Below, one piece after another: positions 3,164 to 58,342 of a stretch of 58,342 nucleotides of DNA. Made by a program: the position numbers and the translations under genes. Under the pieces are notes generated by a model, which was not told the DNA's origin, searched no databases, and saw only the letters and a program-made list of their open reading frames with translations. Within the stretch, counting starts at the first letter, position 1. Each line of letters begins with the position of its first letter. Source of the stretch: a phage; sequence record PZ445426.1; one strand, given 5' to 3'.

Positions 3164-4036
3164 ATGAAAAAGAGTTCTGTAGCTATCAGTATTGGTCTTG
3201 CTCTAATTAATCCACGCGCTCGCGGTGAAGGTGATGTGGAATTGCAATACGAGTATGCATCTGCGGAAGAAATCCCGGCAGAATTTGCAACTCTTTACGC
3301 AGAGCAGGGCGGTAAATACGTTCTTGCAAAAGTCAAAGGTGTAGCACCTGCTGATAGCGTTCGTCGTCTGGAAAGTGCGTTAGCAAAAGAGCGTAACGAT
3401 CATCGTCAGGTGAAACAACAAATTAGCGCACTGGGACGTCCAGTTGAAGAAGTCCTGGCGGATTTGGATCGTATCCCTGAGCTGGAAGCTGCTGCTAACG
3501 GTAAAGGTAATCCGGAAGACATTGAGAAGATGGTCAAAGCCCGTCTTGCTCCGCTTGAGCGCCAATTGCAAACTGTTATCACCGAGCGTGACACGGTTAA
3601 GCAGGAAATTGAAGGCTACCGCACTCGCGAAACTAAAGCGAAGATTAAAGATGCAGTTATTGCCGCTGCATCCGGTGCTAAGCTGCGTCCGTCTGCTATT
3701 GAAGATGCGGTGACTTATGCACAGTTGCAAATGACAGTCGACGAGAACGGCAATGTGGTTACGAAAGATGGGGCTGGTGTAACTCCTTACCTGACTCCGG
3801 CGGATTGGCTGAACGAAATCCTTCCGAAACGTCCGCACTGGGTTGAAGGTTCTGCTGGTGGCGGTGCATCTGGTCCTGGCGCTGGCGGTCATCACGGTGA
3901 AGACCCGTACAGTCACGACGGTTGGAACATCTCTAAGCAGATGAATCTCTGGAAAACTAATCAATCTTTAGCTAAACGCTTAGCTGAAAAGAATGGCGTA
4001 GACCCGCTGAAGCCTGTACGTCCTGCTAAGAAATAA
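3164..4036 (+). CDS. putative scaffolding protein
   Basis: 290 aa; charged, coiled-coil-like middle and Gly-rich C-terminus; between portal and capsid genes; GGAG RBS. Confidence 0.4.
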   Translation: MKKSSVAISIGLALINPRARGEGDVELQYEYASAEEIPAEFATLYAEQGGKYVLAKVKGVAPADSVRRLESALAKERNDHRQVKQQISALGRPVEEVLADLDRIPELEAAANGKGNPEDIEKMVKARLAPLERQLQTVITERDTVKQEIEGYRTRETKAKIKDAVIAAASGAKLRPSAIEDAVTYAQLQMTVDENGNVVTKDGAGVTPYLTPADWLNEILPKRPHWVEGSAGGGASGPGAGGHHGEDPYSHDGWNISKQMNLWKTNQSLAKRLAEKNGVDPLKPVRPAKK

Positions 4037-4158: not shown

Positions 4159-5220
4159 ATGTCTAAATCTAAAATTATTCTACCATTTGGTCGTGGTGAA
4201 ACTGACCTGACTCGTTTGAAGGATGTCATTGTCCCTGAGATCTTCACTGGTTATGTGCAGACGCAGACTGCTGAACTTTCTGCTCTGATTCAATCCGGTG
4301 CGGTTGTAATGGACGAGCGTTTATCTGCTAACCTTGCTGGTGCAGGTCTGACTTTTAACGAGCCGTTCTATAACGACCTGAAAGATGAAGACGAAGATAT
4401 CGCGGTTGATAAAGGCAATCCGTCCAAACCGTCAAACATCACTACCGGATCTGAAGTTCAGGTTCGTATGAGCCGTTCGAAATCCTGGGGTTCTGCGGAT
4501 CTGGTATCAGCTTTGATTGGTAACGACCCAATGACCGCTATCGGTAACCGCGTGTCTGCGTGGTGGGTTCGCCGTCTGCAAGCTGCATACATCGCAACCT
4601 GGAAAGGCGTATTTGCTAATGCGAAGAAATCCCATAAGGATGATCTGACGTTCGATATTTCCGGTTCTTCATTTGTAAACAACCAGACCAACTTTACCGC
4701 GTCTAACTTCATCAACGCAACTGCAACGATGGGTGATGCTGCTCGTGGTCTGACCATGATTATGGTTCACTCTACCGTTCGTAACCGTATGCGTCAGCTA
4801 AACCTGATCGACTTCATTCCGGATGCTCGCGGCGAAACTCAGTTTGAGTATTATCAGGGTCTGCGTATTATTGAAGACGACTCCATGCCGCACGAACCGT
4901 CTACTGGTGTGTTTGAAAGCTGGCTGTTCGGCCCGGGCGCGACTGCAATGGGTGCTGGATCACCGAAAGTTCCGACCGCTGTGGTGCGTGACGAAGCCGC
5001 TAACCAAGGCGCTGGTGAAGAAGTTCTTCACAACCGTGTTGAATGGATTCTGCATCCGGTTGGCCATGCTTGGGCTGCTACTCAAACTGCTAAAGGTGGT
5101 CCGTCTAACGCTGCAACTACTAACAACCTGGCCCATGAAGATTCCTGGCGTCGTGCGTTCCCTGAGCGCAAGCAGCTTAAAGTTGCGCGCCTGATCACTC
5201 GTGAGTATCAGGGTTCCTAA
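4159..5220 (+). CDS. major capsid protein
   Basis: 353-aa ORF with GGAGA RBS after the scaffold-like gene and before an intrinsic terminator; call by position. Confidence 0.55.
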   Translation: MSKSKIILPFGRGETDLTRLKDVIVPEIFTGYVQTQTAELSALIQSGAVVMDERLSANLAGAGLTFNEPFYNDLKDEDEDIAVDKGNPSKPSNITTGSEVQVRMSRSKSWGSADLVSALIGNDPMTAIGNRVSAWWVRRLQAAYIATWKGVFANAKKSHKDDLTFDISGSSFVNNQTNFTASNFINATATMGDAARGLTMIMVHSTVRNRMRQLNLIDFIPDARGETQFEYYQGLRIIEDDSMPHEPSTGVFESWLFGPGATAMGAGSPKVPTAVVRDEAANQGAGEEVLHNRVEWILHPVGHAWAATQTAKGGPSNAATTNNLAHEDSWRRAFPERKQLKVARLITREYQGS

Positions 5221-5251
5221 GGCTTCACTCAACGCCGCGCTGTAGTATTTT

Positions 5252-5277
5252 GGGGACATTTATGTCCCCTCTTTTTT
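5252..5277 (+). terminator. rho-independent terminator (GGGGACA-ttta-TGTCCCC + T-tract)
   Basis: stem-loop and T-run read directly downstream of the capsid gene. Confidence 0.6.
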
Positions 5278-5289
5278 AGGAGAACAACC

Positions 5290-5613
5290 ATGCGTTATCA
5301 ACGTTATGAACGACATGACTTGATGGAAAAATCGTTGCAGGTGGAGCCAATTTCGATTACTCTCGATCCTGCTACGATTGACACCACAACTTCAGAAGTA
5401 AAAACGGTTACTGTTAAAATAAACTTTGTCCCAGGCGGAACTACAAACAAAGCGTATAGTGCGTCAGTTGACGGTTCCTCTGCTACAATTAAAGACAACG
5501 GGGACGGTACAATTACTGTGACCACAACCGCAAGCAGTGGTACTTCAAACTTGACAGTAACGTCCAAGGCAAAGGATAGTGTTACTGGTACATGTGTTAT
5601 TAATGTGACCTAA
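5290..5613 (+). CDS. Ig-like (Big_2-like) domain protein, possible capsid decoration protein
   Basis: 107 aa; Thr/Ser/Val-rich beta-strand pattern (GDGTITVTTTASSGTSNLTVTSKA) typical of bacterial Ig-like domains; AGGAGA RBS. Confidence 0.45.
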   Translation: MRYQRYERHDLMEKSLQVEPISITLDPATIDTTTSEVKTVTVKINFVPGGTTNKAYSASVDGSSATIKDNGDGTITVTTTASSGTSNLTVTSKAKDSVTGTCVINVT

Positions 5614-6284: not shown

Positions 6285-6338
6285 CCATGGAAATGAGCCA
6301 TAGACAATATGTGTTGTGGCTCCTCCGACGTAATAGAA

Positions 6339-6368
6339 AACGGCGTCAAGAAGACGCCGTTTCTGTTC
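6339..6368 (+). terminator. possible weak intrinsic terminator (AACGGCGTC-aagaa-GACGCCGTT + tctgtt)
   Basis: 9-bp stem read directly; poor U-tract. Confidence 0.3.
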
Positions 6369-6422
6369 CTGAAGAAGAGCTCCCGCCGCTTATCCCTACA
6401 ACCATCGCAATGAGGAAGAAAG

Positions 6423-6929
6423 ATGGAGATTTCACTGATAGTTGAAGATGGTACTGGTGTACCGGATGCTAACAGTTATGTGACCATTGAACAAGTCCGC
6501 ATGTATGCCGCAATGCGAGGTATTGTACTTCCAAGTGAAGATGAAGATCTAAAGACAAAGATCTTCGACGCTATGGATTTTGTGGAAGGATACGGTCAAC
6601 GGTTTAAGGGTTACAAAATGGACCCACAGCAACCGCTAAATTGGCCACGCTACGGGGTGTTTGTGGATGGGTTCGAGCTACCCCAAAGCCCTTTACCAAA
6701 GGCGCTTATAAACGCGGTTTGCCAGCTTACAGCGGACTCAGCTACTGGCGGTCCCCTTAATGGGAAAACTACTGCATATGCAGTCAAAAGAACTAAAGTA
6801 GAAGGTCTTGAGATTGAATATGCAACTGGTAGCACAGCACAGTCAGGTCCAGCAAAAACATATGATAAAGCTATGACGTTTTTATCACCTTTGCTGGGTT
6901 ATCAAATGGGTAACAGATTAATACGGTGA
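6423..6929 (+). CDS. putative head-tail connector/adaptor protein
   Basis: 168-aa ORF; first of four short, translationally coupled genes between head and tail genes. Confidence 0.4.
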   Translation: MEISLIVEDGTGVPDANSYVTIEQVRMYAAMRGIVLPSEDEDLKTKIFDAMDFVEGYGQRFKGYKMDPQQPLNWPRYGVFVDGFELPQSPLPKALINAVCQLTADSATGGPLNGKTTAYAVKRTKVEGLEIEYATGSTAQSGPAKTYDKAMTFLSPLLGYQMGNRLIR

Positions 6930-17291: not shown

Positions 17292-18293
17292 TTAATACAT
17301 ATTTGGTATAGCGATAGCTGGAGTAGGGATGATAATATTTCTTTCTGGTGGTCTTAAAGAAGGGGAATAGAAGTTACCAATCACTTTATTTCTTTCAGCT
17401 CTTACCTGATTATTATACATATAAACGCCATTATAACGAACATGGTCATACCCGCCATTATAGACGTTGCGCATACCGTAAAAAGCAAGCTGAATTAACC
17501 TGTTACCTATGTCTTGGTTACTTCCCGATAAAATTAAAGTCCTGTCGAATAAGAATGGTTTTCTCACTGTAGAAAATGTGACTTGCCCAATATTGTTTGT
17601 CATTGTAATACCGTCGCCAGGTGACGGTGGAGTATTATTAAAGATTACCAGCTCCATTGTAACGCTACCAGCAACGTCGTCTCGACCCGTATACGCAATG
17701 TTGCGGACTATAATGTTAGAACCATCAAAGCCAACAGAAACGTTTGGATCGCTCCATCTTGCAAACGGGATACCGGATACAGGTAGTTGCAGACTGCCAT
17801 TGACTGTAACCGTACCAGCGTATTGACAAGTCATTAGCTTTGCATTATTAGAGATTGCTGTAAAATCCGTAGAGTTAGATACATATAGACCTGTATTATA
17901 ATTGGCGGCAGGTAATACCTCCATAATTGAACCCGCCCATTGCGGTAGTTTTCCGGTATACCCAAAAGGATTACCACCCCTTAAGACAACTCCAGAATTA
18001 CCGTTCCTGGAAATAGAGGATATATAGAAAGGTGATGCGACAACTAAACCTTGATCGTAAACTTCAATAATTTCAACTGGCCTTGTTGGAATTACAAAAA
18101 TCTCAGACCCGTTAGTGAGAGGGGTATTAATGACTAACGTTTGATCGGATTGACAGCGCTGATCAAATTTAGCGCAAAAGGACAAGGCCCGTAAACCTGA
18201 TGTTATTTCCATTGCAGGTCTACCGTCATTGTAGTCTATATAAATACCCTCTGGCATAATTACTCCAACAATGTGGTTAAAGATGATAGACAA
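17292..18293 (-). CDS. hypothetical protein, inverted gene inside tail module
   Basis: 333-aa ORF on the opposite strand to all neighbouring tail genes; AT-rich divergent region upstream. Confidence 0.5.
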   Translation of the reverse strand: MSIIFNHIVGVIMPEGIYIDYNDGRPAMEITSGLRALSFCAKFDQRCQSDQTLVINTPLTNGSEIFVIPTRPVEIIEVYDQGLVVASPFYISSISRNGNSGVVLRGGNPFGYTGKLPQWAGSIMEVLPAANYNTGLYVSNSTDFTAISNNAKLMTCQYAGTVTVNGSLQLPVSGIPFARWSDPNVSVGFDGSNIIVRNIAYTGRDDVAGSVTMELVIFNNTPPSPGDGITMTNNIGQVTFSTVRKPFLFDRTLILSGSNQDIGNRLIQLAFYGMRNVYNGGYDHVRYNGVYMYNNQVRAERNKVIGNFYSPSLRPPERNIIIPTPAIAIPNMY

Positions 18294-22107: not shown

Positions 22108-22698
22108 ATGTCTGACATGACTCTTTTACCTACTAATCTCGGTGGCGACGGTTTCGGCGGTGAAGCTGGTGCGGCCGGTATTGGTGGCGCGATCGGTGGC
22201 TTAATTGGTTCCTGGATCGGTAATGGTTGGGGTGGCAATGGTGGTTGGGGTGGTCGCGGTAACTTCGCTGGCCCGGTGGAAGTGCAAGCTTCTGTTGACA
22301 CCAACGCAATTCTGCAAGCTATCAACAACGGTACTCTTCAGACCATTCAGGGGCAGAACGGCACTAACCTGACTGTTGAGCGCTCCGCTGCTTCTACCTA
22401 TAACGGCATCACTCAGCAGAACACTCAGAACATGCTGGCTTCCGTTCAGGGCTTTGCTGGTCTGAACACACAGATCCAGGGCGGCACCAGCCAAGTGCTC
22501 GCGGCTCTGTGTAACAACGAAGCAGCTAACATTACCCGTTCCTTCCAGGCGCAGCTAGAAGCTCAGAAGTGTTGCTGCGAAACCAACCTGAACATCGAGC
22601 GTCAAGCAGAAGCTACTCGTGCGCTCCTGCGCGATCAGCACGCACAAGCGCATAATCATAGTTATTCCAACAAAAGAAATAAGTCATTGCTGCAATAA
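22108..22698 (+). CDS. glycine-rich (glycine-zipper) protein with C-terminal Cys cluster
   Basis: 196 aa from ATG 22108 (GGAG RBS); N-terminus MSDMTLLPTNLGG then long GxxxG-rich stretch; KCCCET near C-terminus. Confidence 0.5.
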   Translation: MSDMTLLPTNLGGDGFGGEAGAAGIGGAIGGLIGSWIGNGWGGNGGWGGRGNFAGPVEVQASVDTNAILQAINNGTLQTIQGQNGTNLTVERSAASTYNGITQQNTQNMLASVQGFAGLNTQIQGGTSQVLAALCNNEAANITRSFQAQLEAQKCCCETNLNIERQAEATRALLRDQHAQAHNHSYSNKRNKSLLQ

Positions 22699-34150: not shown

Positions 34151-36127
34151 TTAGAAAGGAACGTAATCCGGATCATCTACTTGTACAGGGTTAACCACAT
34201 TGTTCACCGTTATACCTTGCGTATTCTGCGAAACAATATCGTCCCAGCTTACATCATCGTTATAGCTCGGACCTTCTGTTGTTCCATCCTGCCCGTATAC
34301 TTTAATCTGAATAGCTTCGTCGTCCTGTGGAGCTTCAAACTTACCGAAACAAGTACCATCATAATCATAGTTCAATATCTCAGGCCATTTCTTATTGGTA
34401 TGAACTTTGATGTATTTTGGTGTTTTAAGCATTGCAGCAACATCAAGGGCTTCTTCAATAGTTTGTGGTAAAGGTAAATGTGTCCTTTTCTTCCACCATG
34501 CCACCGCTTTACGACCCGCCCAGTCACCATGAAGTAGAGCTACCCATTCGCTGAATATTTTACTACCGCAATAATAAGTCACCTTCATTGTTGGAGGTTT
34601 GGAGCTGTCATTGCGTTTAGTGTGCTTCGCATAAGTAACATGCGTAACTTTAAAGTCTTCAACTACAGGAATGTCCTGCTTGATCAGGGCTTCCGTACTT
34701 GCAGCTTTCTTGAGTTTGGTCTGGAACTTAAACTCATGGCCGCAAAAGCCTTCTTTAACGTAATCCGTCCCGCGTAGCCTAAAACCTTTCAGATATAATT
34801 GTTGAACTTGTTCCTGTGTGACGCTGTCCATTGGGATTGGTGCGAAGCCACCGCAATAGCGAGCGGATGCATGATTATACGACCCACATACATCGCATTC
34901 TTTAACCGGAGCAGTGCCAGCACCTTTTTCGCCCGGGCGCTTGGGTTTAACAGGGTCGTTAATAGGGCCCAAACGGCGCGTATTACCGCTGAAATCCAGT
35001 ACAAGGCAGTTCTGCTTGGGGCTTGCCGCAATAGCTTGTAAGCGTCCCTCCTGCGTGGAAAGATCAAAGCCCTCCGCGTACACCGGACGCGTACCGCGAC
35101 CCAGCATCTGAACCCATAACACCGCCGACGCAGTGGGGCGAAGCATGATAATCAGATCAAGCATTGGATGGTCGAAACCTGTGGTTAAGACGTTGTTGTT
35201 CGTTAACGCACGAAATTCACCGCGCTTGAACTTTTCAATAATCTCGTCACGCTCTTTTGCATCAAGCTTTGAGTGAATACATCCGCAACTAATACCCATA
35301 TCATTCAGCATATCACACGCATCTTTAGCGTGTTCAATACCAGAACAAAATATAAGCCAGCTTTGACGGTCTTCACCACATTCAATGGCTTCCTCAAGTG
35401 CGCGGAGTGTTGCGTCGTCGCGATTTACCGCACTTTGCAGCTCACTTTGAATAAACTCACCACCGCGTTTCCCTACCCCGTTGAGGTCCAACTCCATCTT
35501 TGTACGCTTCGGCACAACCGGAAGCAAATAACCTTGCTCCAGGAACCAGTTAAAGGCTTCAGGGGTAGTTGCATCAAACGTTACTTTATCAAATAAAGCA
35601 TCATCGTCTTCGTTTTCCTTAACAATTGAGCCGTAACCCAGTCGATAAGGTGTAGCGGTAAGACCGATAATTTTTAAATACGGGTTAACTTCACGCAATG
35701 CTGCAAAGAACTTCTTATACATTGTTGCATCACGCGGACTAATAAGGTGCGCTTCATCCACAAAGATTAGATCAACCTTGCCAAACTTTTTAGGATGCTT
35801 AGCAACAGATGCAATCCCCGCAAATGTGATAAGATTATAAACTTCTTTACGCTTCAAACCTGCGCTGTAAATACCTGCTGGCGCTTCAGGCCAGACTTTC
35901 ATTAATTTATCATAGTTTTGCGCAATCAACTCTTTGACGTGAGTTAACATCATTACGCGCTGGTTTGGATACCATTTATAAAGCAGATCGAGGAACCCCG
36001 CGATAACGAGCGATTTTCCTGTCCCTGTTGGTAACAGGATCAAAGGGTTCCCCGCGTTACCCTTTTCAGCATCAAAATAGCGGAATACGCTATAAACTGC
36101 TTCCTGTTGATAATCTCTTAATTTCAT
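34151..36127 (-). CDS. SF2 DEAD/DEAH-box helicase
   Basis: motif I LLPTGTGKS, motif II DEAH, motif III TATP, motif VI QMLGRGTR; C-terminal Cys-rich extension. Confidence 0.8.
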   Translation of the reverse strand: MKLRDYQQEAVYSVFRYFDAEKGNAGNPLILLPTGTGKSLVIAGFLDLLYKWYPNQRVMMLTHVKELIAQNYDKLMKVWPEAPAGIYSAGLKRKEVYNLITFAGIASVAKHPKKFGKVDLIFVDEAHLISPRDATMYKKFFAALREVNPYLKIIGLTATPYRLGYGSIVKENEDDDALFDKVTFDATTPEAFNWFLEQGYLLPVVPKRTKMELDLNGVGKRGGEFIQSELQSAVNRDDATLRALEEAIECGEDRQSWLIFCSGIEHAKDACDMLNDMGISCGCIHSKLDAKERDEIIEKFKRGEFRALTNNNVLTTGFDHPMLDLIIMLRPTASAVLWVQMLGRGTRPVYAEGFDLSTQEGRLQAIAASPKQNCLVLDFSGNTRRLGPINDPVKPKRPGEKGAGTAPVKECDVCGSYNHASARYCGGFAPIPMDSVTQEQVQQLYLKGFRLRGTDYVKEGFCGHEFKFQTKLKKAASTEALIKQDIPVVEDFKVTHVTYAKHTKRNDSSKPPTMKVTYYCGSKIFSEWVALLHGDWAGRKAVAWWKKRTHLPLPQTIEEALDVAAMLKTPKYIKVHTNKKWPEILNYDYDGTCFGKFEAPQDDEAIQIKVYGQDGTTEGPSYNDDVSWDDIVSQNTQGITVNNVVNPVQVDDPDYVPF

Positions 36128-36636
36128 AAAGGTCTCACTGTTCTATGATTCTTGTTAAACCCGTATGTAATTTCAGCCTCTTTTCTTGTCTTTATTGCGT
36201 CTTGTAGACTTTCAAAATAACCAAGATGCAGCCGAATACCGTATACATCAATCTGAGCTTTCCATTTCTTATTTGCCTTAGCCCACGTTACTCCAGGACA
36301 ACCGCTCTTATTATTCGATGGTAGTTTTCTATTATGGTTGTTATGGTATTTATTACTTTTATTTAGATTAGTTTTCCAATTATGCGTACCGTCACCATCA
36401 TCATGATCAATATATTCTGGTTCTTCGTTATAGAGCATTTTCCAGATTATACGATGTGCGTAATAATTAAGACCGTTCATAAAAACCATAATATAGGTTT
36501 TACCATGACTAAAAGTAACTTCACTCCCTGCAATTTGACCGTTATGGTTCCAGAATAAGTTACCGCTATCTTCGCTATAGCTAAAAATCCTATTGAGTTC
36601 TTCTTGCGTCGGTAGCGGCAACCTTTTCATAATCAA
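36124..36636 (-). CDS. HNH homing endonuclease with AP2 DNA-binding domain
   Basis: HRIIW...IDHDDGDGTHN (HNH) followed by GVTWAKANKKWKAQI...LGYFES (AP2-like). Confidence 0.65.
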   Translation of the reverse strand: MIMKRLPLPTQEELNRIFSYSEDSGNLFWNHNGQIAGSEVTFSHGKTYIMVFMNGLNYYAHRIIWKMLYNEEPEYIDHDDGDGTHNWKTNLNKSNKYHNNHNRKLPSNNKSGCPGVTWAKANKKWKAQIDVYGIRLHLGYFESLQDAIKTRKEAEITYGFNKNHRTVRPL

Positions 36637-42784: not shown

Positions 42785-43249
42785 TTAAGAATATGTGCCT
42801 GTTTGCACAATGTGATTAATAGCATGTGCTCTGAAGATTTCTCTAAAATCTTCAAGTTCTATTGTGGCACGAATTGGTTCCTTTTTAATATAATGATTGA
42901 ACTCATTAATATCAAAGACGGAAGGGTTCATACATATAACAACTTTCCAACCCGCTCTAGGAATCTTATACATTAAGACCGGGATTTTATTACATTCCTG
43001 TGCAGACTTAACAGTTTGCTTCCACCATGTGTTAACAGCAAGAGTTGCATGGTTTTTAATCTCTACACAATATTGGCAAGTATTATCAATATCCGCACCA
43101 CCTACAGCGGATTGATTTTGTCGCCTTTGTGCAATAGGTTTAGGTGGTAACGGTTTACCAATAAGCTTATGCACTTCAGCATAAATATCGTTGAAAAAAT
43201 CGCAGGCTTCCCTTTCAGCTCTCTGACCTTTTTGACGTATGTTGACCAT
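42785..43249 (-). CDS. putative PD-(D/E)xK resolvase-like nuclease
   Basis: ATG 43249; GADIDNTCQYCVEIK resembles a D...E.K nuclease core; weak call. Confidence 0.3.
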   Translation of the reverse strand: MVNIRQKGQRAEREACDFFNDIYAEVHKLIGKPLPPKPIAQRRQNQSAVGGADIDNTCQYCVEIKNHATLAVNTWWKQTVKSAQECNKIPVLMYKIPRAGWKVVICMNPSVFDINEFNHYIKKEPIRATIELEDFREIFRAHAINHIVQTGTYS

Positions 43250-43727
43250 GATTTGCAAATTCCTTATGTAATTCCAATCTTTTAGCTCTAACCCAAGCTT
43301 TAGCAGCTTGTAAACCTTCAGGTGTAAATTCAAAATATTTTGATACCAGAACACCTCTTACATGTAAGTTTGCATAGTAAACTTGAATACCGTTATGTTT
43401 TGTAATGGTTACACACTTGACACCAGTTTTTGAGTCTTTACGAATAACCATATTATAATTGTTCTGTGAACGATCAGCCAGTCTAAGATTTTCTATTCTG
43501 TTATCGTCTCGAACTCCATTAATATGATCAATTATCATGCCTTCGGGGATATCACCATTGAAGTATTGCCATATTAATCTGTGAGCAAAATAAAATTTCT
43601 TATCAATCTTACCTTGGATATAACCATCCTGACGTCTTGTACCAAATGGTCTTTTATTATATCCGTTTTTATTTCTTTGAAATAATTTGCCATCTATATA
43701 AATAAAACGATCGTTTACATTGATCAT
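43215..43727 (-). CDS. HNH homing endonuclease
   Basis: ATG 43727 with AGGAGG RBS; HRLIWQYFNG...IDHINGVRDDNRIENLRL; preceded by a terminator. Confidence 0.65.
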   Translation of the reverse strand: MINVNDRFIYIDGKLFQRNKNGYNKRPFGTRRQDGYIQGKIDKKFYFAHRLIWQYFNGDIPEGMIIDHINGVRDDNRIENLRLADRSQNNYNMVIRKDSKTGVKCVTITKHNGIQVYYANLHVRGVLVSKYFEFTPEGLQAAKAWVRAKRLELHKEFANHGQHTSKRSES

Positions 43728-43774
43728 ATTTACCTCCTTTATACATATTTTAATATGAAGTAAAATCAATCTCA

Positions 43775-43806
43775 ATAAAAAAGCGCAACGTTTTCACGCT
43801 GCGCTT
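43775..43806 (-). terminator. intrinsic terminator (AAGCGCA-loop-TGCGCTT + UUUUUUAUU)
   Basis: read directly in the intergenic region upstream of the HNH gene. Confidence 0.55.
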
Positions 43807-44733: not shown

Positions 44734-44973
44734 TCACACCTCATAATATATACATAAACCAGAAATAACCAGCTACGAAAATAGCACCCGCAAATAATTT
44801 TAAAAGCTCGAACATTGTTCCCTCCGTTAACTTTATGATGTAAGTATAGCAAGACTTACGATGTATGCAACAACTTTAGACTTGAAATACATCTATGAAA
44901 TAGCACGATTTGCCTTTACCTCTGATCCGTCTAGCTGTACTATTAACCCATAAACAGAGCGGAGGATTACAAA

Positions 44974-45198
44974 ATGGTCATGCTGAATAAAGTATATAGC
45001 ACAATGGGCGCGGATTATAAAGTTGTACGTCACCCGCGTACTGGCAAATTTGAAGCATATATCCGTCCAATGGGTGAAGGTTGGATGTATTACGGCACTT
45101 ATGACGACGCTGAGCAAGCTTATGAAGAAGCGGAAAGTGCGGCGGAAGCATCCGAAATTATGGCAAGGTACGACGTCGATGATTACTATCTCAACTAA
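44974..45198 (+). CDS. hypothetical acidic protein (lone plus-strand gene inside minus-strand block)
   Basis: 74 aa; GGAGGA RBS; followed by a bidirectional terminator. Confidence 0.5.
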   Translation: MVMLNKVYSTMGADYKVVRHPRTGKFEAYIRPMGEGWMYYGTYDDAEQAYEEAESAAEASEIMARYDVDDYYLN

Positions 45199-45202
45199 CA
45201 AT

Positions 45203-45230
45203 AAAGGGCCGAAAGGCCCTTTATTTATTT
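45203..45230. terminator. bidirectional terminator (AAAGGGCC-gaaa-GGCCCTTT + T-rich)
   Basis: read directly between convergent genes 44974..45198 (+) and 45225..47561 (-). Confidence 0.6.
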
Positions 45231-54677: not shown

Positions 54678-54884
54678 ATGGAAACTCCATTGGCTAAACA
54701 AATGATAGAGCGTGCTGATCGGGACGGTTTGCCTGAAGACCATGCTATGCGTCGAACTGCACAAGCGTTTGACGAAATTAGCGTTAATTACGCTATGGGA
54801 AAGAGCACGCCTAAAGGCTTACTGGGCGCATGGGCTCGCGCTCGTCGCTGCTGGTGCAACTACACCGGAGAACCGCTTGTATGA
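54678..54884 (+). CDS. hypothetical protein
   Basis: 68-aa ORF; stop overlaps next start. Confidence 0.4.
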   Translation: METPLAKQMIERADRDGLPEDHAMRRTAQAFDEISVNYAMGKSTPKGLLGAWARARRCWCNYTGEPLV

Positions 54885-55303
54885 TTAAACATGTCAAGCA
54901 ACCAACGTTGAATACATGCGTTTCTGCGTGTTTGGCAATGATCCTTAATAAACCTGTTGAGAAGGTGATTGAGGAATTTCATAGTCGTTATTATAACAAC
55001 TGGGAAATCACTATCAGCGAATATTTGACTAAAAACGGCGTCCAGCATCATTGTTCAGAAGGTGGTGGGCGCGAAACTTTGCATATGGGAGGTTTGTTCC
55101 TGTGCACGGTGCCAAGTCTTAATATTCCGGGCGCATTGCACCAGATTGTGATTGATATGACAGATCACAAGTTTATTGTGCATGATCCAATTAAAGGATG
55201 GGAAGGTAAAAAGTTCTATGTTGGTCCGGATCAAGATCCTGAAGAGCCTGGAGCTTTCATCATTCATACTTGGGTCAAAGACGTTGAAATCCTGCCTTAT
55301 TAA
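54881..55303 (+). CDS. C39-like papain-fold cysteine peptidase
   Basis: ATG 54881 (ATGA overlap); KQPTLNTCVSACLAMIL matches the C39 Q-x5-C-x2-ACLAMI active-site signature; later IVHDP supplies a candidate His/Asp. Confidence 0.55.
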   Translation: MIKHVKQPTLNTCVSACLAMILNKPVEKVIEEFHSRYYNNWEITISEYLTKNGVQHHCSEGGGRETLHMGGLFLCTVPSLNIPGALHQIVIDMTDHKFIVHDPIKGWEGKKFYVGPDQDPEEPGAFIIHTWVKDVEILPY

Positions 55304-55364: not shown

Positions 55365-55550
55365 ATGACCAAACTATACGCCGGATTGTTTTTATTTGCG
55401 ACGTTAATGTTCGCTGGGCTTTATACCTATACAGTAGTCGAACAACCTTCCACGGTTATCCGAATCTTTGCAAGTACAGGGCTTTGTATCTGTCTTATTC
55501 TATTTGTTTTATGCATTGTTATTATCCAAGACCAAAGGAAAATTAAATGA
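55365..55550 (+). CDS. small two-helix membrane protein
   Basis: ATG 55365 with AGAGGGG RBS; two hydrophobic segments. Confidence 0.4.
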   Translation: MTKLYAGLFLFATLMFAGLYTYTVVEQPSTVIRIFASTGLCICLILFVLCIVIIQDQRKIK

Positions 55551-56008
55551 CCACAATTGCGTTTGATGGGAAAGTATTAGCTGCGGACCGTGGAGTTATG
55601 CGCGGGGAAGTTGTGACTGCTTATAAGAAAGTTCATAGCGTAAATGGACATCGTGGACGGTTTTTACTGGGCTTGTGCGGCCTTACAGCATTTACCGATC
55701 AGGTGTTGCGTTATTTTAATAGCGCGGAACCTGTTAAGTTCCCTGATATTAAGCTTTACAGCAAAGATGATTACGGGCAAACTTGCGGTCTTGCGGTTAC
55801 TCCGGAAGGTACTTGCCATTTTATTTATAATGATGGTACTTTGAGCGAACCCATGCTGGACGGATGGGGATCTGAGGGTAGCGGTTGTGTGTTTGCTGCT
55901 GGCGCGTTAGCTGCTGGTGCAAGTGCGAGCGAAGCTATTGAGTTAGCAATTAAACACACCACATGCGCATTCCTGGGAGTTGATACAATATCATTTGAGG
56001 GTTTTTAA
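55547..56008 (+). CDS. HslV-like / proteasome beta-type Ntn-hydrolase protease
   Basis: N-terminus MTTIAFDGKVLAADRG (Thr directly after Met), KKV, and GSEGSGCVFAAGALAAGASASEAIELAI resembling the HslV GSGG...AL...A.DIAE.A region. Confidence 0.55.
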   Translation: MTTIAFDGKVLAADRGVMRGEVVTAYKKVHSVNGHRGRFLLGLCGLTAFTDQVLRYFNSAEPVKFPDIKLYSKDDYGQTCGLAVTPEGTCHFIYNDGTLSEPMLDGWGSEGSGCVFAAGALAAGASASEAIELAIKHTTCAFLGVDTISFEGF

Positions 56009-56269
56009 ATGACTACATTCAGTCATCTGATCCCACCTGCTTATCATAGTAAGGTAGTTGACCACGGGACTCATGTTGTAATTGGTGGCGAAATCTTTAT
56101 CACAGATAACGAGGAAATCGCCATTGCAATTATTGACAGCACTCAGCATGACTTTATGGTTATCCTGCAACACGAACCCGATAACTTCACTTTTTACTCC
56201 AGCTACGGGGTCGATAAAGGTGGAAAAGATCTTGTTAGCTGGTACATTAGCGAGTGGTTTGACGGGTAA
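56009..56269 (+). CDS. hypothetical protein with HslV-like N-terminus
   Basis: 86 aa; starts MTT and has GTHVVIGGE like the HslV N-terminal strand; too short for a full fold. Confidence 0.35.
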   Translation: MTTFSHLIPPAYHSKVVDHGTHVVIGGEIFITDNEEIAIAIIDSTQHDFMVILQHEPDNFTFYSSYGVDKGGKDLVSWYISEWFDG

Positions 56270-56351
56270 TCTCCTTAGATCAATTCTCCTTGCGCCGTAT
56301 CAAGTTTCTCTGTTACCCTTGAGTGGTTCATGTCAAGCGGAGGAACTCGAT

Positions 56352-56789
56352 ATGGCACTTCAACCTCGTGGTATTCGTAATAACAATCCAGGCAATATTC
56401 GCTGGGGTGACAATTGGCAGGGCTTAGTTCCTGCTGATAAGCGGACCGATAAATCTTTTGCTCAATTCACGCAACCGATTTACGGCATTCGTGCACTAGC
56501 GAAAATCCTGACAAACTACACCAAACGTGAAGGCCTGCCAAATGTGGGTAAGAAAAACATCGACACTGTACGTGAAATTATCGCTCGCTGGGCACCGCCT
56601 AACGAAAACGATACGGAAGCGTATATTCGCTCTGTTGCCAAAGCAATTGGTGTTCAACCCAACGATCCAATTAATGTCTTTGACAAGGCAATTATGTCAG
56701 GATTGGTGAAAGCAATCATTCGTCATGAAAATGGCATGATGCCCTATACCGACGACGTAATTAACCGCGCTATTGCAATGGTACTTTAA
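56352..56789 (+). CDS. putative endolysin (by position only)
   Basis: ATG 56352 with GGAGG RBS inside ORF 56082..56789; GIRNNNPGNIRWGD motif; immediately upstream of holin/spanins but separated by a terminator. Confidence 0.35.
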   Translation: MALQPRGIRNNNPGNIRWGDNWQGLVPADKRTDKSFAQFTQPIYGIRALAKILTNYTKREGLPNVGKKNIDTVREIIARWAPPNENDTEAYIRSVAKAIGVQPNDPINVFDKAIMSGLVKAIIRHENGMMPYTDDVINRAIAMVL

Positions 56790-56794
56790 CTGAC

Positions 56795-56816
56795 GGGGCG
56801 TTAGCCCCTTTTATTT
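56795..56816 (+). terminator. intrinsic terminator (GGGGC-gtta-GCCCC + TTTTATTT)
   Basis: read directly between 56789 and the holin start. Confidence 0.5.
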
Positions 56817-56825
56817 GGAGGGAGC

Positions 56826-57170
56826 ATGTTCAATTCACCCAACGAACATTGGGCAGTTCTAGCGGGGTTTGCGTTTATCTCCCTTATTGGGGGAGCTCTC
56901 GGTTATGTCATGCGTACAATAGACGCTGGTAAGAAAGTAAGGGCAAGCATTGCATTTCTTGAAGGCTTATCCGCCGCTTTCTTTGGTGTTATAATGTATG
57001 CGATCTACAGGGAGTTTAACATCAGCCTTTGGTTCGCTTTTGGCCTTGCTGGCCTATTTGCTTGGGCAGGTTCACGTGCTACGCTAAAAGCCCTAACGTC
57101 GCTTATAGCTTCACGGACAGGGATCAAACTCGATTCAGGGGACTGCAAACATGAAAACGATTCTAAATAA
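56826..57170 (+). CDS. holin (three transmembrane helices)
   Basis: 114 aa; three hydrophobic helices and charged C-terminus; GGAGGGAG RBS; followed by spanin pair. Confidence 0.6.
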   Translation: MFNSPNEHWAVLAGFAFISLIGGALGYVMRTIDAGKKVRASIAFLEGLSAAFFGVIMYAIYREFNISLWFAFGLAGLFAWAGSRATLKALTSLIASRTGIKLDSGDCKHENDSK

Positions 57171-57624
57171 CTTCTTCGGTTTTATAAAAACTAAACCGCG
57201 TCTGTTTATCGAGTATTTGATGATTGGCGCGGTTGTGTTTTTATGCGGGGTGGCCGCCTACTTGTGGTCACAGAACGAGCTCAGCAAAACTAATTTAAAT
57301 CATGCTGAGCAAAGACTAACCGTTGTAGAACAGGACAATGCAAAGCTGGGCGAAGCTGTTGTATTTCTTGCTTCCCAACGGGAGAAGGATACTGAATCTT
57401 ATCGAAAATTGGCTTCAGCAATTGAAAGTGAGCAACATAACCACAGGTTGCTTCAGGACAAATTAAAAGCACTGGAGAAAAGCAATGCCGACGTCAAAGC
57501 TTATCTTAATGAGCGTGTTCCTGATGATTTGCGCAGGCTGCTCGACGGAGATACAACCACCACCACCGCAGATAGTGAAGATAAAACTTCCAGCTCATCT
57601 GTTGGTAGAATGTCGGGAAGTTGA
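57151..57624 (+). CDS. i-spanin (Rz-like)
   Basis: N-terminal TM helix then coiled-coil periplasmic region; overlaps holin stop and o-spanin start. Confidence 0.6.
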   Translation: MKTILNNFFGFIKTKPRLFIEYLMIGAVVFLCGVAAYLWSQNELSKTNLNHAEQRLTVVEQDNAKLGEAVVFLASQREKDTESYRKLASAIESEQHNHRLLQDKLKALEKSNADVKAYLNERVPDDLRRLLDGDTTTTTADSEDKTSSSSVGRMSGS

Positions 57625-57787
57625 TAAATATCCTTTGGTTTATACGAGGGATATTATCCAACGTTTGCAGGATACAGAAACAGCTCTGACTGAATGTAAA
57701 CTGAGGGTTAAGGAAATCATACGCTATGAAGCTGAAAATGTTTCGCTTGATTTTGTAGGATCAAGCAATTATATTCAGCCTAAATAG
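57485..57787 (+). CDS. o-spanin (Rz1-like outer-membrane lipoprotein)
   Basis: signal peptide with lipobox-like ICAGC, Pro-rich QPPPPQ; begins in +1 frame inside the i-spanin gene and extends beyond it. Confidence 0.6.
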   Translation: MPTSKLILMSVFLMICAGCSTEIQPPPPQIVKIKLPAHLLVECREVDKYPLVYTRDIIQRLQDTETALTECKLRVKEIIRYEAENVSLDFVGSSNYIQPK

Positions 57788-57807
57788 CAATAAGAAAGGG
57801 GGCTTCC

Positions 57808-58342
57808 ATGAACGGGGCAAGTCAAGAGCAATATGATCGTGACTGGACGAATTACATCCAGTATGCAAATAGCTTGTCCGCTGACGAGATGGCAATACGT
57901 GACAAAGTTGTTGCTGAGTATATGTTCGACTACAATTGGACTAACGCTTGCATGAGATGCGGGTTCAATGCTATGTTTGCACAGGAGCTTGGCCAACGCT
58001 TTGCCACGGACTGTTACGTTCGATGGAAGCTCAAGGAGATTGAAAGATCCCGTGTTCAACGTACTTCTGAGCAAGCTAACATTGAAGCAGACCTAGAGCG
58101 TCAGCATATCATTGAAGCATTAAAACGTGAAGCTCATTATACAGGACCGGGATCTTCTCAAGCTGCTAGAGTAGCCGCATTGGGCAAGCTTGCACAAATT
58201 TATGATTTGGATGCTCCCAAGAAGGCTAAAATTGATGTTACTAACAGAGGCGGCGTAATGATAGTCCCTGCTGTAGCAAATATTGACGAATGGGAAAAAA
58301 CTGCATCCGAGTCTCAACAACTGCTAGTTAAAGAGACTGAAG
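57808..58342 (+). CDS. putative terminase small subunit (3' end outside window)
   Basis: ORF with GGGGG RBS runs to the window end; directly upstream of terL if the genome is circularly permuted. Confidence 0.4.
   Translation, partial: MNGASQEQYDRDWTNYIQYANSLSADEMAIRDKVVAEYMFDYNWTNACMRCGFNAMFAQELGQRFATDCYVRWKLKEIERSRVQRTSEQANIEADLERQHIIEALKREAHYTGPGSSQAARVAALGKLAQIYDLDAPKKAKIDVTNRGGVMIVPAVANIDEWEKTASESQQLLVKETE

Follow-up and report, generated by a model that had tools for sequence, protein, structure and literature searches.

Lysis Cassette of the Phage

The analyzed window, a stretch of 58,342 nt of phage DNA (sequence record PZ445426.1), comes from an E. coli phage, a Seuratvirus with 97.9% nucleotide identity to phages SLUR25 and SLUR63. 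Four ORFs encoding proteins of 145, 114, 157, and 100 aa were found in the region considered here and were assigned to an endolysin, a holin, an i-spanin, and an o-spanin, respectively (Table 1). The identities of these proteins and the geometry of their genes are established. A first-pass annotation made from the same sequence had read the region as a lysis cassette, and the order of endolysin, terminator-like hairpin, holin, and overlapping i- and o-spanins is supported; re-checking of the ORFs, the hairpin, and the overlaps showed that all of its coordinates were correct. The region is probably the canonical holin–endolysin–spanin lysis cassette of Seuratvirus, with two cis elements apparently shaping its expression.

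The cassette as such is ordinary, and its genes and terminator have already been annotated in near-identical phages. The endolysin of phage Seurat (KM236243/NC_027378) is 100% identical at the protein level and is annotated as “similar to ENC34 endolysin”. In the records of Seuratviruses from the BASEL collection (e.g., WildeMaa, MZ501112), the putative endolysin, holin, i-spanin, and o-spanin are all named. The hairpin located in the leader of the endolysin gene is annotated in none of the Seurat and BASEL-collection records. Searches with Rfam (positions 55500–58342, leader included) and PADLOC gave zero matches.

Table 1. Features of the lysis region, with positions in the window and the evidence used for their assignment.
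Feature	Position	Strand	Evidence
Conserved non-coding leader	56279..56351	+	97.3% identity to STP-SP5
Predicted 20-bp RNA hairpin	56294..56356	+	Folding energy, start occlusion, invariant pairs
Endolysin, Enc34-type (PHA02564) catalytic domain alone, 145 aa	56352..56789	+	7Q47, phrog_873, catalytic residues
Intrinsic-terminator-like hairpin	56795..56816	+	5-bp stem, GTTA loop, T-tract, conservation, Seurat annotation
Holin, LydA-like, 114 aa	56826..57170	+	PF16083, phrog_785
i-Spanin, 157 aa	57151..57624	+	phrog_5975, phrog_89, hydropathy
o-Spanin, 100 aa	57485..57787	+	PF23793, NF038368, lipobox
Sigma-70-like promoter candidate, TTGATT-17-TATATT	57747..57775	+	Scores 9/12

Holin and Spanins

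The holin matched the PF16083 family with 39.8 bits (cut-off 28.4) and phrog_785 (“holin”) at 8e-25. In our reading of its hydropathy, the sequence contains two strong hydrophobic segments and a weaker third one. The protein is 93.9% identical to the holin of CSP1, which has been studied experimentally (PMC13577005). The ribosome-binding site GGAGGGAG is located at 56817–56824, followed by the ATG at 56826. A longer structure, in which this ribosome-binding site would pair with the final part of the endolysin gene, was also considered and was rejected (z = −1.29; the pairs are lost in relatives).

The i-spanin gene overlaps the holin gene by 20 nt. The encoded protein has an N-terminal membrane helix (approximately residues 16–41) followed by a long cysteine-free periplasmic domain, and it showed similarity with phrog_5975 (1.2e-61) and phrog_89 “Rz-like spanin” (6.3e-12). 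Its match with the LysB family TIGR03495 was weak (37.8 bits, cut-off 92.75). As the first-pass annotation had described, the o-spanin gene starts within the i-spanin gene, with its ATG in the +1 frame, and continues 163 nt past the end of the latter after an overlap of 140 nt. The o-spanin begins with the signal peptide MPTSKLILMSVFLMICAG, after which come Cys19, Ser at +2, a proline-rich stretch, and two more cysteines. It scored above the cut-offs of both PF23793 LysC (46.8 bits, cut-off 27) and NF038368 P2_Rz1 (27.4 bits, cut-off 27). With Cys at −3, the lipobox (C-A-G-C) does not follow the [LVI][ASTVI][GAS]C consensus; the ICAGC lipobox, like the signal peptide, is kept in five relatives, including the divergent phage STP-SP5, and spanins with non-consensus lipoboxes are known to function (PMC6139136).

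The membrane helix of the i-spanin, the lipoprotein signal of the o-spanin, the reading frame, and the overlap are those of overlapped two-component spanins. The first-pass annotation had implied that spanins that overlap rather than nest are unusual, but the overlapped arrangement is the commonest two-component spanin architecture (228 of 528 systems; PMC6139136). In the prototype of this arrangement, LysB/LysC of phage P2, the o-spanin gene likewise begins within the i-spanin gene, shifted to the +1 frame, and runs past its end. P2 LysB and the i-spanin of the window are only weakly alike, with a score below the family cut-off, whereas the o-spanin passes the LysC cut-offs. As for the database records, the long o-spanin called in the first pass is better than most of the existing annotations. 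The o-spanin is missing from the Seurat record because the latter was opened inside the gene, and in others of the Seurat and BASEL-collection records it is truncated to 61 aa, without the signal peptide. Most GenBank records of the genus omit or truncate this gene, the correct product of which is a lipoprotein of 100 aa.

Terminator-like Hairpin between the Endolysin and Holin Genes

The GGGGC-gtta-GCCCC hairpin with a T-tract that the first-pass annotation had placed, as a terminator, between the endolysin and holin genes is present, and it carries a “terminator” annotation in the Seurat record (KM236243, 55944–55957). The hairpin begins 6 nt past the endolysin stop codon and consists of GGGGC (56795–56799), the gtta loop, and GCCCC (56804–56808), followed by TTTTATTT (56809–56816). 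The sequence has the features of an intrinsic terminator, namely, a 5-bp stem composed of G-C pairs only, a 4-nt loop, and seven U among the next eight nucleotides. The stem is invariant in seven Seuratviruses and the loop varies (GTTA, GTCA, TTCG); in STP-SP5, the 36-nt endolysin–holin region is 75% identical overall and the stem is identical at 10 of 10 positions. The combination of an invariant stem with a variable loop is consistent with a termination function.

Strict sites, defined as perfect stems of 5 bp or more that include four or more G-C pairs and are followed by eight bases of which six or more are T, were found 11 times in the window, compared with 0.93 ± 0.96 in Markov shuffles (more than 10-fold enrichment). 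Seven of these sites lie between crude ORF calls; of the remaining four, two (on both strands) are within a 52-aa ORF that is likely spurious, and one is within an opposite-strand ORF. The hairpin at 56795, with a predicted energy of −10.0 kcal/mol, is the second weakest among the 11. In the strict scan, it is also the first plus-strand terminator-like site after the start of the rightward unit near 51.4 kb. A looser scan of terminator-like sites showed no enrichment (13 vs. 9.7 ± 3.4).

With a stem of 5 bp, the hairpin could be inefficient or could only stabilize the 3′ end of the mRNA. It is rather unlikely that it is a mere 3′-end stabilizer, a processing barrier, or a neutral leftover and not a regulatory terminator. 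Such a role would agree with the shortness of the stem, with the roughly chance frequency of the sites found in the looser scan, and with the requirement that the terminase and structural genes downstream be well expressed. However, the loop and flanks vary around a conserved stem and T-tract, the sites found under the strict definition are enriched, and a candidate promoter located shortly before the small terminase gene could drive the structural genes independently. This sigma-70-like candidate lies within the last part of the o-spanin coding sequence, at a distance of 34 nt from the downstream ATG (57809) of the small terminase subunit. In STP-SP5, both hexamers are unchanged and the spacer has four substitutions, and the stretch is non-coding there through a frameshift; since this conservation comes from one divergent sequence, it is suggestive only.

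In Nonagvirus, the spacer between the endolysin and holin genes is 13 nt long, and a hairpin with a U-run lies directly before the endolysin AUG instead.

Predicted Leader Hairpin of the Endolysin Gene

The leader of the endolysin gene is 82 nt long. Its identity between the window and STP-SP5 is 97.3%, compared with 75.9% and 79.2% for the flanking genes. The leader is predicted to fold into a hairpin with the 5′ arm at 56294–56314, an apical loop at 56315–56335, and the 3′ arm at 56336–56356, and its 20-bp helix is interrupted by one 1 × 1 mismatch. The 3′ arm holds both the GGAGG ribosome-binding site (56339–56343) and the AUG (56352–56354) of the endolysin gene. The predicted minimum free energy is −28.7 kcal/mol (z = −3.5), and z-scores of −3.8 and −5.3 were obtained for the leaders of relatives. 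According to the calculated opening energy of the start region (−22.3 kcal/mol), the endolysin start is the most occluded among 87 ORFs (median −5.9, SD 3.8). All 20 main pairs are invariant in seven phages, with every variable column located outside the stem. The presence of both this predicted hairpin and the terminator-like one in the sequence, and their conservation, are established; within Seurat-type sequences, compensatory base changes were found in neither stem, because the stems never vary.

Phage slur01 has a different leader and an identical endolysin protein, and its ribosome-binding site and AUG are again paired (opening energy −20.8 kcal/mol). Two further unrelated hairpins with the ribosome-binding site in the 3′ arm were found in Nonagvirus-like phages. 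Opening energies of −14.7 kcal/mol or stronger were obtained for 11 of 11 distinct Queuovirinae leaders, and values of −15 kcal/mol or stronger for 5% of 175 control starts. Across the whole endolysin family, 67 distinct leaders showed no difference in occlusion from controls (p = 0.24); in the smaller prophage-like homologues, the median opening energies were about −4 to −7 kcal/mol. Occlusion of the start site is specific to certain clades and is not general to the endolysin family. A pattern scan of IMG/VR for more leader variants gave only about 100 chance matches and three already-known Seuratvirus contigs. A conserved hairpin predicted to cover the endolysin ribosome-binding site and start codon appears to be new, as no earlier description of it was found.

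The presence of unrelated hairpins at the same position in related phages recalls the control of the T4 lysozyme. In T4 gene e, the ribosome-binding site and the AUG of the lysozyme are held within a helix of the leader (PMC3014915). The start sites of both genes are located in a leader helix (a predicted one in the window), and both genes end a long upstream transcription unit. The present phages are, however, unrelated siphoviruses, and their enzyme belongs to a different family. In addition, T4 has a late promoter (TATAAATA) inside the segment of DNA that specifies the 5′ strand of its helix, whereas none is recognizable here. No sigma-70-like promoter was found on the plus strand between 56160 and 57747, the leader hairpin included, and a T4-like relief would therefore operate without its key element.

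One other way of relieving the hairpin was considered, in which it would be an RNase III site, as in the lambda N leader and T7 gene 0.3, with cleavage activating endolysin translation and with no internal late promoter. The length of a minimal RNase III substrate is about two helical turns, which is also the approximate length of the 20-bp helix with its single mismatch, and the hairpin contains no promoter-like sequence. Nevertheless, this reading is not very probable, because the hairpins of the Nonagvirus-like phages have only 11–12 bp, which is too short for RNase III, and are terminator-like with a U-run.

Endolysin

In the first-pass annotation, the endolysin call was said to rest on position only, and the true endolysin was thought to be possibly elsewhere. 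The call is in fact supported by similarity. [quoted passage not shown] Pfam and NCBIfam gave no match, since neither library models the PHA02564/Enc34-type family. A supposed identity of 7Q47 with the lysin Pae87 turned out to be wrong; the entries of Pae87, a member of another family (PF11860), are 7q4s and 7q4t.

The GIRNNNPGNIR motif of the protein is the N-terminal hallmark of the PHA02564/Enc34-type muralytic domain. The catalytic residues are established as well: W80, Y91, and E126 (Trp79, Tyr95, and Glu131 of Enc34) are invariant in an alignment of 10 diverse carriers of the domain, which include Enc34, M4Lys, JBD69 gp25, CR8 gp16, the D6 Sit-like protein, and Bp-AMP1 gp40. The roles of Glu131, Trp79, and Tyr95 in the catalytic site of Enc34 have been described (PMC8943055). 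The catalytic domains of ORF39 of the Hafnia phage Enc34 (7Q47) and of M4Lys of the Salmonella phage BSPM4 are 51–52% identical to the endolysin and have in common with it the GIRNNNPGN motif and the Trp/Tyr/Glu signature; Enc34 also has overlapping spanins, as in the window. Judging by homology, the protein is a soluble peptidoglycan glycosidase of the Enc34/PHA02564 family, presumably a glucosaminidase or a muramidase like Enc34. From the 52% identity to 7Q47, we infer a six-helix, all-helical fold. A single-sequence AlphaFold2 model also contained six helices and zero strands, but its mean pLDDT of 42 makes it unusable.

Enc34 and M4Lys have a C-terminal two-helix membrane domain, and cell lysis by them is possible without a holin. 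This domain of the full-length architecture is absent from the 145-aa endolysin, the C-terminus of which coincides with the start of the M4Lys linker; its peak 19-residue hydropathy of 0.92 indicates that it is without a transmembrane segment. Since it has no such membrane domain, the endolysin should be soluble and holin-dependent. As it stops 19 residues past the catalytic Glu, it resembles the engineered catalytic-domain truncation of Enc34, which is soluble, non-toxic, and lytic on outer-membrane-permeabilized E. coli (PMC8943055). This natural Enc34-type lysin consisting of the catalytic domain alone suggests an accessory role for the membrane domain present in Enc34 and M4Lys, which matters for lysin engineering, and indicates that the Enc34-type domain also serves the classical holin-dependent pathway. 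The endolysin of CSP1 is 96.6% identical to that of the window, and the CSP1 endolysin and holin genes have been co-expressed in E. coli for lysis-suppression assays, in which the suppression was overridden by holin overexpression (PMC13577005).

A reading in which 56352–56789 encodes a virion or structural component and another gene encodes the true endolysin is highly improbable. Several GenBank records do name its orthologue “structural protein P5” or “capsid and scaffold protein”, the silence of Pfam and NCBIfam would fit this reading, and the domain is not confined to endolysins. Among its homologues in 791 phage records are endolysins as well as domains of internal virion or tail-injection proteins. 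In other phages, the domain forms part of tape-measure proteins, of P1 Sit-like tail-injection proteins, and of the gp16-like internal virion protein D; in the PDB, it was also found at the N-terminus of a 1295-aa protein (9vvp Gp29). However, the protein encoded here is free-standing, its gene lies directly beside those of the holin and spanins, its close homologues include the muralytic enzymes Enc34 and M4Lys (the latter as reported in PMC8943055), and its CSP1 ortholog served as the endolysin gene in the published lysis assays. In addition, no other muralytic domain was found in about 40 other structural or unassigned ORFs of the window, and no other muralytic enzyme is present in the Seurat annotation.

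An N-terminally extended, SAR-like (signal-anchor-release) endolysin made from an upstream in-frame start, with ribosomes reading through the hairpin, is equally improbable and was rejected: the frame is open for 231–270 nt upstream in all Seuratviruses, including slur01 with its unrelated leader, and the extension is hydrophobic, but the open frame is unremarkable, because when the upstream gene was shuffled synonymously, 31% of the shuffles were open to the same extent. In addition, the in-frame starts of the extension all lack a ribosome-binding site, the frame closes after 18–42 nt upstream in Nonagvirus, and the endolysin ATG used in the first pass is also that of the curated records of Seurat and of the BASEL collection.

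Transcription and Proposed Control of Lysis

No convincing promoter element common to the intergenic regions emerged from a search of k-mers and motifs, and the window contains no homologue of the “late transcriptional activator” of the Klebsiella phage Kpn2-P2. No transcriptome study of any Queuovirinae phage was found in a literature search, and the timing classes used below are therefore assumptions. The terminator-like hairpin lies only 9 nt before the holin ribosome-binding site. No promoter would fit between the two, and transcripts of the holin and spanin genes must therefore arise by read-through or start at a promoter located before the hairpin.

We infer the efficiency of termination, the timing of transcription, and the relief of the leader hairpin. 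The leader hairpin would probably keep the endolysin untranslated on long read-through transcripts, as in T4 gene e, and the terminator would most likely insulate the holin gene, which is lethal and sets the timing of lysis, from the long and presumably early rightward unit upstream, or attenuate its transcription from that unit. The endolysin, once made, would accumulate in the cytoplasm until the LydA-like holin opens the inner membrane, and the overlapping i-spanin/o-spanin pair, similar to P2 LysB/LysC, would then disrupt the outer membrane.

More tentatively, siphoviruses of the Queuovirinae may time lysis by two RNA-level safeguards that evolved independently of T4. The first would be the leader hairpin silencing the endolysin on long early transcripts, present in at least four unrelated versions (Seurat-, slur01-, 9g-, and Kpn2-P2-type), and the second a terminator always placed between the upstream transcription and the holin; a late event (an internal start, RNase III cleavage, or antitermination) would relieve both. 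Together, the leader hairpin and the terminator offer a simple, testable case of lysis-gene insulation in easily manipulated phages of E. coli K-12 (BASEL collection).

A comparison with the late operon of phage lambda (pR′-tR′, S, R, Rz/Rz1, terminase) shows both differences and likenesses. Unlike in lambda, the endolysin gene of the window precedes that of the holin, the terminator is located inside the cassette, and no Q-like antiterminator was identified. In both phages, late transcription must pass a terminator, and the lysis cassette is located directly upstream of the terminase genes.

Identification of the Endolysin

All four ORFs were found where the first-pass annotation had placed them, and its reading of the region as a lysis cassette holds. 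It had called the endolysin by position only and allowed that the true enzyme might be encoded elsewhere. A profile search gave no matches for the product in Pfam or NCBIfam, which accounts for this doubt, but assigned it to the PHROGs family phrog_873 "endolysin" (4.7e-63). Among solved structures, the product matched 7Q47 (E 7e-34); this entry is the endolysin catalytic domain of Hafnia phage Enc34 and belongs to family PHA02564 (PMC8943055). The isolated Enc34 domain is soluble and non-toxic, and is muralytic on E. coli, P. aeruginosa, and H. alvei with permeabilised outer membrane; its Glu131, Trp79, and Tyr95 are the proposed catalytic-site signature, common to the GH73 and GH23 glycosidase families (PMC8943055).

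Ten carriers of the domain were aligned, namely, the window protein, Enc34, BSPM4 M4Lys, two Nonagvirus-like endolysins, STP-SP5 (a divergent relative), Casadabanvirus JBD69 gp25, CR8 T7-like gp16, D6 P1 Sit-like protein, and Bp-AMP1 gp40. W80, Y91, and E126 of the window protein (Trp79, Tyr95, and Glu131 of Enc34) are invariant in all ten; N12, G14, and N15 in the GIRNNNPGNIR motif do not vary either. The family and structure matches and these conserved residues speak against a location of the enzyme elsewhere. No second muralytic domain was detected by Pfam or PHROGs scanning of ~40 further structural or unassigned ORFs, and the curated annotation of phage Seurat lists none either, so no rival ORF for the muralytic role emerged.

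Annotations of this cassette already exist for near-identical phages, and the enzyme family is backed by a solved structure and by experiments. The Seurat endolysin is 100% identical to that of the window and is labelled in GenBank as "similar to Enterobacter phage ENC34 endolysin"; the CSP1 endolysin is 96.6% identical. For lysis-suppression assays, E. coli was made to co-express the endolysin and holin of CSP1, and the suppression exerted by the phage was overridden by overexpression of the holin but not of the endolysin (PMC13577005). M4Lys runs on into a membrane domain, whereas the window endolysin ends 19 residues past the catalytic Glu and has no hydrophobic segment. Before the endolysin ATG, its frame contains no stop codon for 270 nt (231–270 nt in all Seuratviruses), giving a 235-aa TTG ORF; this opening is unremarkable, since 31% of synonymous shuffles equal it.

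Features of the window and of related sequence records
Sequence	Feature	Position	Strand	Remark
Window	DUF6453/"membrane protein" gene	17292-18293	-	between tail-tip and tail-fibre genes, opposite strand
Window	Homologue of CSP1 holin-binding protein	22108-22698	+	phrog_9288
Window	HNH homing-endonuclease genes	36124-36636; 43215-43775	-	replication region
Window	Hairpins with T-tracts on both strands	6340-6360; 45202-45223		second lies between convergent genes
Window	Crude ORF calls, probably spurious	6287-6445; 44893-45201
Window	157-aa ORF	54830-55303	+	N-terminus faintly peptidase C39-like (E 0.07)
Window	HslV-like peptidase gene	55547-56008	+	phrog_1040, 3e-32; two genes upstream of endolysin
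Window	Open frame upstream of endolysin	56082-56351	+
Window	Leader	56279-56351	+
Window	Leader hairpin (predicted)	56294-56356	+
Window	Endolysin	56352-56789	+
Window	Terminator-like hairpin	56795-56816	+	GGGGC 56795-99, GTTA, GCCCC 56804-08, TTTTATTT 56809-16
Window	Holin	56826-57170	+	ribosome-binding site GGAGGGAG, then ATG 56826
Window	i-spanin	57151-57624	+
Window	o-spanin	57485-57787	+	ATG 57485
Window	Sigma-70-like promoter candidate	57747-57775	+	TTGATT-17-TATATT; inside o-spanin 3' end, upstream of small terminase gene
L003 (CSP1)	In-frame ATG before holin	1797-1832		window equivalent 56793-56825
L001 (BASEL collection)	o-spanin as called	5109-5294		61 aa, TTG start
L003; L007 (CSP1 clade)	o-spanin as called	2642-2794; 2539-2691		50-aa fragment
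L018 (slur01-type)	HNH gene	upstream of 2501		directly upstream of endolysin
L005; L006 (Nonagvirus-like)	Regions of overlapped spanin pair and small membrane protein	1827-2358, 3209-3445; 1661-2390

Predicted Leader Hairpin over the Endolysin Start

The sole feature for which no description was found among the consulted records and publications is a predicted leader hairpin, located just beyond the first-pass coordinates. Nowhere in the region is conservation higher than in the 82-nt spacer that precedes the endolysin: the leader is 97.3% identical between the window and STP-SP5, and the flanking genes 75.9% and 79.2%. The predicted fold is a 20-bp helix (8 bp, a 1x1 mismatch, and 12 bp) whose 3' arm holds the ribosome-binding site GGAGG and the AUG, with a minimum free energy of -28.7 kcal/mol (z -3.5; -3.8 and -5.3 in relatives). 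Opening the endolysin start (-18 to +6) would cost 22.3 kcal/mol, the highest value among 87 window ORFs (median 5.9, sd 3.8). Across seven phages, none of the 20 main pairs varies and changes are confined to columns outside the stem; there is therefore no covariation, which neither proves nor disproves the helix. Comparison with Rfam gave no matching family.

Independent support for a start-occluding hairpin comes from relatives with other leaders. Phage slur01 encodes an identical endolysin and differs in both leader arms, yet its ribosome-binding site and AUG are paired again (20.8 kcal/mol). In the slur01 type, an inserted HNH endonuclease gene has replaced the leader sequence. The 9g-type Nonagviruses have a 12-bp hairpin with GGAG in its 3' arm, followed by U6 immediately 5' of the AUG, and in the Kpn2-P2 type U5 follows an 11-bp hairpin that is unrelated to the others. 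The opening cost is at least 14.7 kcal/mol in all 11 distinct Queuovirinae leaders, while only 5% of 175 control starts reach at least 15; a GC-rich clade (records L026-L029) shows similar occlusion. The smaller prophage-like homologues do not share this behaviour, and the family as a whole does not differ from controls (p = 0.24); the occlusion is thus confined to particular clades.

The nearest known parallel is gene e of phage T4: on its early read-through transcripts a helix reduces translation of lysozyme about 100-fold, and translatable mRNA comes from late promoters within the DNA that encodes this helix (PMC3014915). Unlike in T4, no promoter was found inside the leader hairpin of the window. 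Relief could equally come from cleavage of the two-turn leader helix by RNase III. Together with the terminator, the leader hairpin would, as a proposal, form a coherent model for avoiding premature lysis.

Terminator-Like Hairpin and Transcription of the Holin

The terminator-like hairpin reported by the first-pass annotation between endolysin and holin has the sequence it described, and the call is supported. A permissive built-in terminator scan showed no enrichment (13 sites vs 9.7 +/- 3.4). Under a strict definition (perfect stem ≥5 bp long that includes ≥4 G-C pairs, with ≥6 T among the next 8 bases), the window contains 11 sites vs 0.93 +/- 0.96 in Markov shuffles; seven lie between crude ORF calls, and three of the remaining four in a likely spurious 52-aa ORF or an opposite-strand ORF. 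The hairpin (-10.0 kcal/mol) belongs to this enriched set and, in the strict scan, is the first such site on the + strand downstream of the start of the rightward unit near 51.4 kb. Its ten stem bases are unchanged across seven Seuratviruses; the loop is GTTA, GTCA, or TTCG, the tail is variable, and the whole 36-nt spacer is 75% identical between the window and STP-SP5.

The gap between the T-tract and the holin ribosome-binding site spans just 9 nt, too short to hold a promoter. Holin transcription must therefore rely on read-through or on a promoter that precedes the hairpin. We infer that the hairpin insulates or attenuates the holin, a lethal timing gene, from upstream transcription; its role may instead be limited to mRNA 3' end stabilisation.

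No terminator was found between the o-spanin and the small terminase gene. As for the promoter candidate in the o-spanin 3' end, both hexamers are intact in the single divergent sequence of STP-SP5, with four spacer changes in a stretch that is non-coding after a frameshift, which weakly suggests a real promoter. In that case the structural genes would be independently driven, and the holin and spanins would be left to read-through of the hairpin.

Holin and CSP1-Type Lysis Suppression

The holin exceeds the cut-off of the LydA family PF16083 (39.8 bits, cut-off 28.4), also matches phrog_785, and overlaps the i-spanin gene by 20 nt. In the CSP1 clade (CSP1, phiG7, OddieOddie), a C-to-T change together with the GTCA loop yields an in-frame ATG, and the first base of the terminator stem supplies its G. 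A possible 11-aa N-terminal extension (MGRQPLFIGGN) results, annotated as the holin start in two records. This geometry resembles the dual start of lambda S107/S105, without an obvious ribosome-binding site. The extended form is impossible in the window because the GTTA loop gives an in-frame TAG.

The window encodes a homologue of the CSP1 holin-binding protein (97% over 182 aa), whose C-terminus differs from that of its counterpart (196 vs 235 aa). The CSP1 protein is reported to bind the holin and to act as an antiholin together with two partner genes (369 and 531 bp, located after it). Neither partner has a homologue in the window; therefore, CSP1-type lysis suppression is probably absent from this phage.

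Spanins and Their Annotation

The o-spanin starts in the +1 frame of the i-spanin gene, overlaps it by 140 nt, and extends 163 nt beyond its stop codon. The first-pass description of spanins that overlap rather than nest was right in geometry, but the rarity it implied does not hold: overlapped genes are the most frequent architecture of two-component spanins (228/528), with 182 embedded (PMC6139136). The i-spanin has a single N-terminal membrane helix and a cysteine-free periplasmic domain, and it matches the LysB family model weakly, under the cut-off. The o-spanin exceeds the LysC/Rz1 cut-offs in both Pfam and NCBIfam; its signal peptide ends ICAG|C, with Ser at +2, and two additional cysteines are present. 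Its N-terminus is conserved in WildeMaa, CSP1, phiG7, OddieOddie, and the divergent STP-SP5. In the latter phage, a 1-nt insertion cuts the o-spanin short.

The o-spanin is the gene that gene callers most often miss or start wrongly (PMC6139136), and most GenBank Seuratvirus records shorten it or split it over record ends. BASEL-collection records give a form without the signal peptide, those of CSP1, phiG7, and OddieOddie a fragment; the Seurat record was opened within the gene, and in record L002 it lies at the record end. The full-length lipoprotein ORF (100–101 aa) with its signal peptide is kept in all of these, and the o-spanin coordinates of the first-pass annotation are the correct ones.

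In Nonagvirus-like relatives, by contrast, the spanins come first, as an overlapped pair ahead of the endolysin. The spacer from endolysin to holin measures 13 nt and lacks a hairpin, and the small terminase gene has a strong terminator before it. A small membrane protein follows the holin, and its N-terminus weakly resembles that of the Seuratvirus i-spanin (11/26 identical, pairwise E 1e-4). The spanin position and this resemblance indicate that the lysis module was rearranged between the two genera.

Genome Identity and Layout

The last 2.8 kb of the window are 97.9% identical to Escherichia phages vB_Eco_SLUR25 and SLUR63, 97.8% to Greed, and 92–98% to ~30 other Seuratvirus genomes (subfamily Queuovirinae). 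The first base of the window falls within the large terminase gene and its last within the small one, so that almost the whole genome is covered. The rightward unit comprises ~20 small genes of unknown function. Two HNH homing-endonuclease genes lie in the replication region, two hairpins with T-tracts on both strands look like bidirectional terminators, and the DUF6453 gene looks like a moron (inserted accessory gene).
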